Of a DNA stretch of 4,163 nt, positions 1,212-3,959 are shown piece after piece. Under the pieces are notes generated by a model, which saw only the letters and a list, made by a program, of their open reading frames with translations, ran no database searches and was not told where the DNA came from. Both the position numbers and the translations under genes were made by a program. This DNA comes from a virus. Taxonomy: Duplodnaviria; Heunggongvirae; Uroviricota; Caudoviricetes. The stretch is taken from IMG/VR virus record IMGVR_UViG_2541047896_000024; one strand, 5' to 3'. Every line of letters starts with the position of its first letter. The stretch's first letter is position 1.

Positions 1212-1493
1212 TCACATCCAGCTACGGAGTTGATGCTCAACAGCAACCACGTATTCATCGAATAATGACGATATTTGCGAATCATTAATGATGCGCACAT
1301 TTACAAAATATCCGTCCTCCTTAACACATACCGGCTCGCCATCTTCAGTAAGTTCTCCGGTTTCTTTGTACACATTACCTATCACGTCAATAAGAATATC
1401 ATCCTGCATCGACTCGTCATCATAATAGCCAATGCTCTCCATAAAGGCCGAAAAGTCGGCCCTGTCTGCAAATTTGAGTGTTAAATCTTTCAT
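1212..1493 (-). CDS. Hypothetical small acidic protein (93 aa), translationally coupled to stf
   Basis: ORF 1212..1493 (-). Its ATG (complement of 1491..1493) overlaps the stf stop (complement of 1493..1495) as TAATG. GGGGGAG Shine-Dalgarno about 8 nt upstream inside the stf 3' end. Asp/Glu-rich, no hydrophobic segment. No family recognised from memory. Confidence 0.6.
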   Translation of the reverse strand: MKDLTLKFADRADFSAFMESIGYYDDESMQDDILIDVIGNVYKETGELTEDGEPVCVKEDGYFVNVRIINDSQISSLFDEYVVAVEHQLRSWM

Positions 1494-3895
1494 TAGATTG
1501 ACTCCCCCATCTGAGCATCAGTCAATGCCTTGTGCCAAATACGCAGATTTCGAACGTGTCCAAATAGGTGACGGTTGCCGGATGATGATTGACCACCAAT
1601 ATTAATGAAGCCTCCTGTATATTTGTGTTTTTTATAAGGAGAAACTACCTTAGCACCAATATTACCGTTAACCACAACACACAATTCTCGACTTTCTGTG
1701 AATCTAAAGCCGATAATGCTTTTTCTCTCTGGTCGTTCTATAACGCTTTTATATTCTATTTTAGTGCCTTTACCATTTGTAATGATTGCGCGTGCTCCCA
1801 AAGATGTATACCCCAAATACATATAACTTTCATCTGCAATTTCAGTTGTATCTCCCGTAGTGGAAATATTAAGAATACGTGCGCTACCTTCTTTGTTTGG
1901 CGATTCATCCCAATTGGTATTAACTTCTGCTAATGAACTAATAGCGGGATTGCACCAATTTAGAGAAATGGGGACCGTTACAATATCGCTGGCGCGTGTT
2001 ACAGGGGATGCGCCTGTTATAATAAACGATGAAGCGCATGCCCCACCTTCAACTTGAGGGGTCGCAATATAAATATAATCATCCGCGCCAGTGCCCACTC
2101 CTTTTGCCGGGGCATACTGAACCATTCCACCTATCATATTTTCTGTATCAAGTGCCTTAATTGTCGCCTCAAAAAAGATCCATTTGCTTGCTTCATCTTT
2201 AACAGCCCTTGCAGTAATGCGATTAGCGGCACCACCCGTCTTATCAATAGATAAATCTGTCGTATTTAAGTAAGCGTCACCTAAGAATGTGTAGGTAGAA
2301 CCATCATAGTTTTCAAATCGTAATCGGCATCTTAAATTTGGAGTGCCACTTTGCACCCTGCATGATATGGTTACATACTTTTCTCCGCCTGTTACATCAA
2401 AACCTTTACTGCCGGAAACGGTTACTATGTTAATCGCTGAAATTTGCCCTACCATTTCTGGTTTTAATGTAAATTTTGCGTACTGGAATCCGAAATCATC
2501 TACACCTGATGCACTTAAGATCATATTTGACGACTTGTTCCATTTAGTCGGATTTGTTGAATTGATTAGCAGGTTAGTTCTTTGCCCCTCAATAAGCAGG
2601 CCATCACGTTCAAATCGTGGCTCGTCAATGGCAGCCTCTGTCAGCACACCAGATTTATTAATGTAAGTTGCTTTCGATGCGCGTTTAAACTTTACAATCT
2701 TGTCGCCAGGCATTGTTATTTCATCGTCGCCAATAACAATTTTTTTATATGATGGCGAAAAGCCCGTAATCATATCCAGTGAATCGTTAAACGGTATCCA
2801 CACATCAGGCAGTGGCTGTAAGACATATTTATACGGCTCTGCTGCCTGACTTGCATACTCTCTGGCTGCGTCTTCACTTGCTTTAGCTGCTGTCTGGCTT
2901 GCTGCCGATGCTTGCGCCGAGTTCGCCGCCGCAGTCTCGCTCGCCTTTGCGTTGGTTTCACTGGTTTTTGCTGCTTTTTGACTGTTAGCTGATGCAGTGG
3001 CAGAAGCAGCCGCCGCGCTTGCAGAACTGGCTGCGGCACTCTCGCTTTGGGCCGCTGCATCCTGACTGCTTTTCGCCGCAGTTTCACTGGCTTTGGCATT
3101 CGTTTCGCTGGTCTTCGCTGCCGTCTGGCTGGACTTTGCGTTAGTTTCACTCGTCTTCGCAGCTTTCTGGCTGTTAGCCGCAGCAGTTGCTGATCCAGCT
3201 GCTGAAGTCGCAGAACCGGCTGCCGCGCTCTCGCTTTGGGCTGCTGCAACCTGGCTGTTTTTTGCCGCAGTTTCACTGGCTTTGGCATTCGTTTCGCTGG
3301 TTTTCGCTGCCGTCTGGCTGGACTTTGCGTTGGTTTCGCTCGTCTTTGCGGCTGTCTCGCTATTTTTCGCGTTGGTTTCTGATTTTTTGGCTGCTGTCGC
3401 GGAGTTTGCCGATGCAGTCTTTGAGGTCGCTGCCGCCTGTGCACTATTAGCTGCATTCGTTTCTGAGGTTTTCGCCGCGTTCTTCGATGATGCCGCTGCA
3501 GTTTCGGATTTCTTTGCCGCCGCTGCGCTCTGAGAGGCGGCTTCAGCGTTGCGTGCCGCTTCTTCCACCATTTCCTCAAAACGACGCAATGCCTCCGGCA
3601 TGACATCATCTTCCGTCATGGCACCGAGAAAATCATTCAGCGTCCCCGGCTTAGAATCTTCATACACGGTGATGGTCCCGGCATGTGAAGGCGAAAAACC
3701 TTCAACCAGCAGGATAACGCTGTACTGGCCATACTCAACATCCATACTGTAACGCCCGGCTTCATCCGGATTTTCTGAGGCCAGCGTGTTCACTACCACC
3801 GTGGTGCTGTTACGTTTTGCTTTCAGCTGGATTGAGCAGTTCTGTACCGGTTTTCCTGTGCCGTCTTTCAGTACACCTGAAATCTTTACTGCCAT
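1493..3895 (-). CDS. stf: Side tail fibre protein, lambda Stf family (800 aa) with a divergent C-terminal receptor-binding region
   Basis: ORF 1493..3895 (-). The N-terminal ~115 aa (MAVKISGVLKDGTGKPVQNC...YSMDVEYGQYSVIL...HAGTITVYEDS...) match the lambda Stf N-terminus as I recall it. G-rich Shine-Dalgarno (GGGGGG) 3 nt upstream of the ATG at 3893..3895. Residues ~118-350 are Ala/Ser/Thr-rich heptad-like repeats (KTSETNA/KSSQTAA...). C-terminal 450 aa are non-repetitive and end in ...GFINIGGQSSSGNRHLFGHVRNLRIWHKALTDAQM, which resembles the C-terminal strand of ConA-like/LamG lectin domains. Confidence 0.92.
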   Translation of the reverse strand: MAVKISGVLKDGTGKPVQNCSIQLKAKRNSTTVVVNTLASENPDEAGRYSMDVEYGQYSVILLVEGFSPSHAGTITVYEDSKPGTLNDFLGAMTEDDVMPEALRRFEEMVEEAARNAEAASQSAAAAKKSETAAASSKNAAKTSETNAANSAQAAATSKTASANSATAAKKSETNAKNSETAAKTSETNAKSSQTAAKTSETNAKASETAAKNSQVAAAQSESAAAGSATSAAGSATAAANSQKAAKTSETNAKSSQTAAKTSETNAKASETAAKSSQDAAAQSESAAASSASAAAASATASANSQKAAKTSETNAKASETAAANSAQASAASQTAAKASEDAAREYASQAAEPYKYVLQPLPDVWIPFNDSLDMITGFSPSYKKIVIGDDEITMPGDKIVKFKRASKATYINKSGVLTEAAIDEPRFERDGLLIEGQRTNLLINSTNPTKWNKSSNMILSASGVDDFGFQYAKFTLKPEMVGQISAINIVTVSGSKGFDVTGGEKYVTISCRVQSGTPNLRCRLRFENYDGSTYTFLGDAYLNTTDLSIDKTGGAANRITARAVKDEASKWIFFEATIKALDTENMIGGMVQYAPAKGVGTGADDYIYIATPQVEGGACASSFIITGASPVTRASDIVTVPISLNWCNPAISSLAEVNTNWDESPNKEGSARILNISTTGDTTEIADESYMYLGYTSLGARAIITNGKGTKIEYKSVIERPERKSIIGFRFTESRELCVVVNGNIGAKVVSPYKKHKYTGGFINIGGQSSSGNRHLFGHVRNLRIWHKALTDAQMGESI
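2846..3545. repeat. Degenerate tandem repeats inside stf: about three 189-nt (63-aa) units with 21-nt (7-aa) sub-periodicity
   Basis: Direct comparison at a 189-nt offset: 3078..3140 and 3267..3329 are nearly identical (gcagtttcactggctttggcattcgtttcgctgg...ccgtctggctggactttgcg); 2944..2999 versus 3133..3188 is about 80% identical. A 21-nt periodicity is visible at 3327..3400 (gcgttggtttcgctcgtcttt / gcggctgtctcgctatttttc / gcgttggtttctgattttttg). Boundaries are approximate. Confidence 0.75.
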
Positions 3896-3906: not shown

Positions 3907-3932
3907 AAAAAAGCCCACCTGAACCGGCGGGC
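3907..3932 (-). terminator. Rho-independent terminator downstream of lom
   Basis: On the minus-strand transcript: stem GCCCGCC (3926..3932) / GGUGGGC (3913..3919) with one G-U wobble, 6-nt loop (3920..3925), followed by a U6 run (complement of the A-run 3907..3912). The hairpin pairs better on the minus strand than on the plus strand (A-C mismatch there). Confidence 0.6.
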
Positions 3933-3959
3933 TGTCATAACACTGTGTTACCTGGCTAA

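Follow-up and report, generated by a model that had tools for sequence, protein, structure and literature searches.

A small acidic protein translationally coupled to a lectin-tipped side tail fibre of a lambdoid prophage and its possible role in fibre assembly

What does a small acidic protein do when it is encoded directly behind a side tail fibre gene, in the place where a fibre assembly protein of the Tfa family would be expected? The question is raised by a 4,163-nt stretch of DNA, hereafter the window, which is the right end of the tail operon of an E. coli lambdoid prophage and in which every gene lies on the minus strand. In the direction of transcription, a partial lom (3960 onward) is followed by a terminator-like element (3912-3933, minus strand; a GC-rich hairpin and then a T-run), by stf, which encodes an 800-aa side tail fibre (1493-3895), and by orf93 (1212-1493), an ATG-started gene for a 93-aa protein. 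The next gene begins 9 nt past orf93 and encodes a 234-aa 'tail fiber domain-containing protein', a stub of a second fibre (498-1202), and a 97-aa protein with two strongly hydrophobic segments (194-487; phrog_1443, function unknown) closes the cassette. Beyond it lies the 3' remnant of a lambda-type tfa (55-153, extending to ~174). The closest complete genomes are 97% identical across the whole window and carry ruvABC/aspS-side chromosomal genes just past the tfa remnant, which is the right-hand edge of a cassette (stf-distal/orf93/second-fibre/membrane-protein) that took the place of the original 3' end of stf and 5' end of tfa. RefSeq labels the equivalent stretch 'tail fiber assembly protein, missing N-terminus'. 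The stf of the window is a complete 800-aa frame, whereas that of NZ_CP124475.1 (9895-11898), the closest complete genome at 97% identity, is annotated as a pseudogene with its C-terminus missing; both sequences have an intact orf93. The 97-aa protein could be a membrane-located superinfection or receptor-modifying factor.

The stf/orf93 junction

A preliminary description, made from the DNA letters alone, had noted an acidic 93-aa reading frame joined to stf by a one-nucleotide TAATG overlap, with a ribosome-binding site embedded in the stf 3' end, and both observations were borne out. CATTA at plus-strand positions 1491-1495 reads TAATG on the coding strand, where the last A of the stf stop (TAA, 1495-1493) is also the first base of the orf93 ATG (1493-1491). 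A Shine-Dalgarno-like GGGGGAG (1508-1502, minus strand) is located 8 nt 5' of the ATG, within the stf 3' coding sequence, and G-rich sites are also present at the fibre/orf93 junctions of other loci. The encoded protein contains 21 Asp and Glu against 7 Lys and Arg, with a pI of 4.05 and no hydrophobic segment. Among 37 distinct orthologous sequences, pN/pS in the orf93 frame was 0.21, indicating purifying selection. Four of the five control frames gave values of 0.9-2.2, and the 0.27 of the codon-aligned antisense frame is the usual artefact expected of that frame. orf93 is a genuine gene and not a chance reading frame.

The coding strand of the window showed no promoter-like site, and no terminator-like site was seen between stf and orf93; besides the lom/stf hairpin, the sole coding-strand terminator-like site (2047-2028) lies inside stf. 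Considering that the lom/stf hairpin resembles a terminator, expression of stf and orf93 presumably depends on antiterminated late transcription. At the level of translation, orf93 would be made by termination-reinitiation at TAATG, and as the ribosomes would be those just finishing stf, orf93 would be produced beside each fibre chain, probably in comparable amounts.

The orf93 family and its predicted fold

orf93 was matched over its full length by phrog_1361 (PHROGs, function unknown; E = 2.7e-46, residues 1-93 against profile positions 1-92 of 92), as were all 40 diverse relatives. Pfam contained no family at E <= 1 for orf93 and no match for the 40 relatives, and NCBIfam and PADLOC gave no match to orf93. 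An exhaustive HMM search of 1.84 billion representatives returned 109 relatives, nearly all of them stand-alone proteins of 85-110 aa, and the family spans E. coli prophages to distant metagenomic phages. In the alignment, M-x-D-x-x-L-K-F is conserved at the N-terminus, one strand carries G-Y-[FYH]-V-N-[VIL]-R, and P-x-R-x-W-x closes the proteins exactly one residue past its Trp; the extra length of longer members consists of insertions in one loop. All 40 members examined are acidic, with net charges of -3 to -15. No paper addressing the family was found, and a full-text search for the PHROG identifier returned nothing; databases already list the family, as a PHROG and under thousands of 'hypothetical protein' entries, with no function assigned.

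Giant PKD-repeat/TPR proteins, which also appeared in the HMM search, were rejected as homologues, as Pfam describes them as PKD, cadherin or TPR arrays. These matches (P0185, P0192, P0211, P0219 and P0222) comprise 5-10 stretches each, and the three that were scanned with Pfam (P0185, P0192 and P0211) are PKD/cadherin repeats. Considering that orf93 is predicted to be an alpha/beta protein, we judged the resemblance to lie at the level of a motif (the GYYVNVRV hairpin against a PKD strand) and not of homology.

Structure prediction, proposed in the preliminary description as a check, gave a confident single alpha/beta domain: the AlphaFold2 model, built from 47 sequences, has a pLDDT of 85.5 and the order beta-alpha-alpha-beta-beta-beta-beta-alpha, and its final three residues, including the nearly invariant Trp, are disordered. 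When the model was compared with viral models using Foldseek, only uncharacterised proteins were matched and no lectin or adhesin fold was found. Sequence searches of the PDB with the single protein and with a profile returned chance-level matches only (GAPDH and telomerase p19, E > 0.02). Since all of these matches are uncharacterised or at chance level, the fold has no informative solved relative and, as modelled, is new. Homology to an unrelated known family, which according to the preliminary description would count against a fibre-specific role, was not found in Pfam, NCBIfam, PADLOC or the PDB sequence searches.

That description had also placed orf93 in the slot of Tfa, at half the size and without a Tfa motif, which agrees with the remnant state of tfa at 55-153, the 93-aa length and the lack of a PF02413 match. 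Like members of the Tfa family (lambda Tfa, Mu TfaMu, P2 gpG and Pam3 gp25; Caudo_TAP, PF02413), orf93 lies directly downstream of a fibre gene, is presumably made in step with the fibre and would act on the fibre distal end. Tfa proteins are about 160-200 aa long, and whereas gp25 and TfaMu combine a fibre-binding domain with a C-terminal helical trimerisation bundle (PMC9608196), the predicted structure of orf93 is one alpha/beta domain that has no such bundle. Furthermore, the presumed client of orf93 is a pair of lectin-type beta-sandwiches and not an interdigitated trimeric tip, and orf93 does not appear to co-vary with the receptor-binding part. As such, orf93 is not a Tfa, and among the testable features of that family it possesses only the gene position.

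Other fibre helpers differ as well. T4 gp57A is a small acidic cytoplasmic protein that acts as a general chaperone of several fibres, forms an all-helical coiled-coil oligomer and is not translationally coupled to them. orf93 resembles it in being small, acidic, cytoplasmic and presumably concerned with fibre assembly, but it serves one fibre type only, its predicted fold is alpha/beta, and the searches used here detected no sequence similarity to gp57A. Peptidase_S74 chaperones (T5 pb1, K1F endosialidase, DT57C LtfA/LtfB) and the 'chaperone caps' of Alteromonas V22/A5 represent alternative solutions to fibre-tip assembly. No PF13884 match was obtained with orf93, and the S74 domain in the window belongs to the neighbouring 234-aa protein. 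The trans-acting chaperones of V22/A5 are, according to their paper, structurally like intramolecular chaperone domains, in contrast with the small predicted alpha/beta domain of orf93.

Pairing of orf93 with lectin-tipped fibres

In the window Stf, a PF08400 anchor occupies aa 1-131 and is followed by a shaft of Ala/Ser-rich repeats. The distal module (aa ~359-800; aa 359-800 at 1496-2821, minus strand) has two beta-sandwiches, the GTA_spike_fiber domain and a terminal LamG/galectin-like one, in addition to a conserved neck. NF048003 matched aa 434-635 with 61.2 bits (cut-off 36 bits), and phmmer related the first lectin domain to the RcGTA head spike fibre 6tb9_F3 (E = 5e-5). In the monomer model of aa 359-800, only the first beta-sandwich is reliable (pLDDT 80-96, against 63.6 overall), and the alignment was shallow (28 sequences), which may be all that lies behind the poor confidence of the terminal domain. 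With this model, Foldseek matched tandem LG/galectin pairs, namely laminin LG4-5, neurexin, galectin-8/9 and the adenovirus fibre galectin domain. Pfam Laminin_G_3 (PF13385) was found in one homologue of the distal module, and the BASEL authors independently named the equivalent domain of IrisVonRoten gp22 'galectin-like'. The RcGTA head spike fibre Rcc01080 (PDB 6TB9) is homologous to the first lectin domain but is 325 aa long with only ~45 residues past that domain, so it apparently lacks the terminal LamG-like domain; no orf93-like gene is mentioned at rcc01079-rcc01080 in the RcGTA literature. The window Stf has no S74 intramolecular chaperone, and tfa is reduced to a remnant. The Ala/Ser/Thr-rich shaft, with repeats of the form AAKTSETNAKxS..., is encoded by a 189-nt tandem repeat at 2927-3361 (2.3 copies, 83% matches, nested periods of 42 and 21 nt). 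This repeat also generates long spurious opposite-strand reading frames, such as 3093-3533 (+) and 2770-3609 (-).

To place orf93 in its genomic surroundings, we relied on synteny, which is the strongest evidence on this gene. tblastn located the family in 181 phage records, which include lambdoid phages (phage 21 and mEp460 among them), Drexlerviridae, Dhillonvirus, Queuovirinae, T5-like Tequintavirus/Epseptimavirus and Vequintavirinae, the last with a divergent tail; among the matches listed with annotation, most overlap a gene annotated as a tail or side-tail fibre. At 167 of 169 enterobacterial loci, the orf93 start overlaps the stop of the upstream fibre gene, by 1 nt in 134 and by 4 nt in 33, and the two loci without overlap are apparently disrupted, one of them being phage D2, where mobile-element genes are inserted in stf. 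The anchors of these upstream fibres are unrelated: PF08400 in lambdoid phages, and those of T1-like phages, Dhillonvirus, Queuovirinae, T5-like phages (LtfA-type; IrisVonRoten gp22/gp23) and a 1479-aa Vequintavirus fibre. Their last ~440 residues, in the fibres examined, are homologous to Stf 360-800 with 36-75% identity. The fibre end reads ...HLFGH.RN.RIWH..LT.. in 86 of 167 fibres and ...RN[LF]RIWH.xLT.. in nearly all others listed, the fuller motif being ...RHLFGH.RN.RIWH.xLT..Q... P2-type N-termini (PF03406/PF12571) are also found on the distal module, and their gene neighbourhoods lie outside the synteny count.

The same arrangement was found at great distance. Two distant members of the family, with 35-60% mutual identity and ~30% identity to orf93, were used to retrieve 41 environmental viral contigs, and in those with an intact upstream frame the homologue lies at -4 or ~+9 nt after a protein of ~400-800 aa. 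These upstream proteins end in ...[KR][KR][IL]AYYPxRLTxxQLQxLT[SA], analogous to the enterobacterial fibre end, and NF048003 matched all nine that were tested with 50-283 bits. The pairing of orf93 with the lectin module is shown to be near-universal, and it is ancient. Downstream of the homologue, nearly all environmental loci carry small, unrelated genes and no second fibre.

Several further observations concern the distribution. A contig scan of genomes yielded four loci only, three from Escherichia and one from a mis-binned Collinsella MAG contig, and added no taxonomic breadth. The 'Campylobacter phage' and 'Listeria phage' records (MG065652-MG065692, OR847733) carry an E. coli phage fibre module at <=100% protein identity, as does the Collinsella contig (locus L213) at 91%; these entries are probably mislabelled, contaminated or mis-binned. 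Within the same phage groups, fibres end either in an S74 domain (DT57C LtfA) or in the lectin module followed by orf93 (phA11, AZ21, IrisVonRoten). The main fibre allele of rV5 has an S74-type end, and the rV5 virion proteomics paper lists no protein of the orf93 kind, which speaks neither for nor against a place of orf93 in the virion.

The synteny bears on a remark of the preliminary description that the acidity of orf93 is also compatible with a DNA-mimic or anti-defence moron. Under this proposal, orf93 would have nothing to do with the fibre and would be an acidic DNA mimic, an anti-defence protein or a moron of lysogenic conversion, carried along behind the tail genes. Strong acidity (pI 4.05; family net charge -3 to -15), the adjoining lom-type morons at the prophage end and the lack of an assigned function would suit such a protein. 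However, orf93 starts inside the stf stop and lacks its own promoter-like or terminator-like site, the same arrangement occurs in the middle of the late tail module of strictly virulent phages, and PADLOC gave no match. Moreover, orf93 tracks one fibre module across very distant phages, a pairing that hitch-hiking would not preserve. When compared with DNA mimics of the Ocr and ArdA type, orf93 has the acidic surface but no structural similarity to a known mimic, and its expression signals and late-module position do not point to early or independent expression. We therefore consider this proposal very unlikely. The other suggestion of the preliminary description, a fibre-specific chaperone of a new class, was retained as to fibre-dedicated pairing (167/169 loci; 9/9 environmental upstream proteins with NF048003) and a new fold.

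Possible roles in fibre assembly

To see which part of the fibre orf93 might act on, we compared the conservation of the two proteins among 48 distinct close E. coli fibres. orf93 has a mean pairwise identity of 96% (minimum 88%), whereas that of Stf is 55% at aa 441-620 and 51% at aa 651-770, with minima of ~20%; means are higher in the Stf neck (91%, aa 351-440) and over the last 30 aa (84%). Considering that orf93 remains constant while the lectin domains diverge, it cannot read the variable, presumably receptor-binding surfaces and must act on a constant feature. In these alignments, orf93 does not co-diversify with the receptor-binding loops; the weak correlation between orf93 identity and Stf-segment identity (r = 0.07-0.30) is confounded by physical linkage and carries no information on this point. 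The last 25 aa of the fibres are basic, with a mean charge of +3.2 and about two His besides, and the remaining distal module is neutral, which suggests an electrostatic match between acidic orf93 and the terminal strand of the fibre.

On balance, we lean towards orf93 being a co-translated, fibre-dedicated assembly partner of a new structural class, a function that we infer from context, as we do physical binding to Stf, the binding site and chaperone activity. orf93 would then be a cytoplasmic partner dedicated to fibres tipped with the tandem of GTA-head-spike-fibre and LamG/galectin-like beta-sandwiches. It would bind a constant element of the Stf distal module, either the C-terminal strand or the neck, and the best candidate for docking is the conserved basic last strand and helix (RHLFGHVRNLRIWHK...), at aa 771-800 of the window Stf (...RHLFGHVRNLRIWHKALTDAQMGESI; 1496-1585, minus strand). 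The acidic surface of orf93 and its invariant termini would mediate binding. Once bound, orf93 would aid folding, solubility or assembly of the module, as a holdase or a cap, and would either depart before adsorption or remain as a small accessory subunit. A need for such a helper is consistent with an Stf that has no S74 chaperone, with a tfa that persists only as a remnant and with a terminal lectin domain that is poorly predicted in the monomer model. On the other hand, beta-sandwich domains of the lectin type usually fold without help, so that it is not obvious why a chaperone would be needed, and a structural subunit or an adaptor would equally give tight linkage and conservation.

One such subunit would be a permanent part of the distal fibre with a role in adsorption, as gp38 adhesins sit on the fibre tips of T2 and S16. 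In that case, orf93 could, for example, complete or regulate the sugar site, or recognise a conserved secondary receptor such as LPS core or ECA. Stoichiometric co-translation and a carbohydrate-binding module as partner are in keeping with this idea, and an invariant ligand could explain the strict conservation of orf93. The conserved polar residues Asn65 and Arg67, along with position 63 (Phe or His), alternate along the strand of aa 62-68 and should, from this inferred geometry, share one face of the sheet. However, orf93 matches no lectin or adhesin fold, a strongly acidic protein of 93 aa is ill suited to bind anionic LPS or ECA, orf93 does not show the diversification that is normal for receptor-binding proteins, and no detection in virions is known. 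We regard an adsorption role as improbable.

An adaptor is suggested by the gene that follows. Here, orf93 would reside in the virion on a proximal fibre (Stf/LtfA-like) and serve as a socket for the N-terminus of a second, distal fibre, giving a branched or T-shaped structure. At 161 of 165 enterobacterial loci, the order is first fibre, orf93 and second fibre with a 9-11 nt spacer, which an adaptor fits at least as well as an assembly partner does, and the high conservation of orf93 would suit a constant joint. An N-terminal motif of second fibres, M-[AV]-T-x-T-x-IP-x-DI-x-x-LK, is common to the 234-aa protein of the window, IrisVonRoten gp24, phA11, KarlBarth and VogelGryff. The 234-aa protein carries this N-terminus of T-shaped distal fibres (MATSTVIPDDIKTLKG, its first 28 residues), a short coiled coil and, in its C-terminal half, Peptidase_S74 (PF13884; aa 116-172, E = 4.6e-6), and it has no ~400-aa receptor-binding middle. 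By comparison with other S74 fibres, SSIRYKH is a candidate cleavage motif in this protein, and cleavage there would leave a mature protein of only ~115 aa.

The closest described counterpart is the directly homologous three-gene module gp22-gp23-gp24 of IrisVonRoten (Bas32), where gp23 is a 92-aa orf93 homologue with a 4-nt overlap with the gp22 stop. According to the BASEL collection papers, gp22 is the proximal fibre and gp24 the T-shaped distal receptor-binding fibre, and these papers on the locus assign no role to gp23. The window differs in its distal fibre, the stub, and in its lambdoid PF08400 anchor. gp23 was annotated 'tail fiber protein' by the BASEL authors without published evidence, a label that favours an adaptor over an assembly partner. 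Furthermore, the attachment partner of gp24 varies between 'Gp22' and 'Gp23' in the BASEL paper: the Fig 12 legend and the main text of PMC11990801 disagree on whether the proximal fibre is 'Gp22' or 'Gp23'. Since Gp23 is the 92-aa orf93 homologue, this mismatch makes the presence of gp23 in the multimer model of that paper ambiguous.

Against an adaptor, the second fibre follows orf93 in enterobacterial loci but is missing from nearly all environmental ones, and it is not constant even among the former. Phage D2 and PhiR40_1 have no second fibre, and the 97-aa membrane protein directly follows their orf93 homologue. The next gene in Vequintavirus is unrelated and 98 nt away, and small unrelated genes occupy this place in nearly all distant environmental loci. 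In addition, the N-termini of second fibres are of at least two unrelated types, MANRID... and MATSTVIP.... The branched LtfA/LtfB fibre of DT57C is described in two papers, neither of which mentions an orf93-like protein. As these papers describe S74 ends on both DT57C fibres and report no small gene between the two, the DT57C model system does not cover the orf93 family. Taken all together, we think it unlikely that orf93 is a docking adaptor.

The assembly partner and the joint might also be two sides of one protein. In this bolder form, which we consider doubtful, orf93 would be the founder of structurally new trans-acting fibre factors that are obligate partners of lectin-tipped fibres across diverse phages. 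It would clamp onto the basic C-terminal strand as a removable cap that keeps the sugar-binding heads silent or soluble in the cell, and in enterobacterial phages would additionally provide a socket for the second fibre. The 10-kDa protein would then be a hidden third component of 'branched' lateral fibres, required for transplanting receptor-binding modules. If instead orf93 is the assembly partner that we favour, it would add a structurally new class to the trans-acting fibre assembly factors, a functional kind that is already known.

Swaps of fibre tips for host-range engineering usually fail unless the cognate helper moves along; if orf93 is needed, any fibre-tip cassette must include it, and considering that orf93 is constant while the lectin domains vary, a single copy might serve many tips. 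The lectin-type distal module is common and occurs in model and therapeutic groups, including BASEL Drexlerviridae, Dhillonvirus, Queuovirinae, T5-like phages and Vequintavirus. Published structural models, such as that of IrisVonRoten gp22/gp24, give the orf93 homologue no role, and deciding between chaperone, cap and joint would complete the parts list of branched lateral fibres. With a role for orf93, a PHROG and thousands of proteins now annotated 'hypothetical protein' would also gain a function. In E. coli itself, a close variant of orf93 is present in 988 of 5426 complete genomes.
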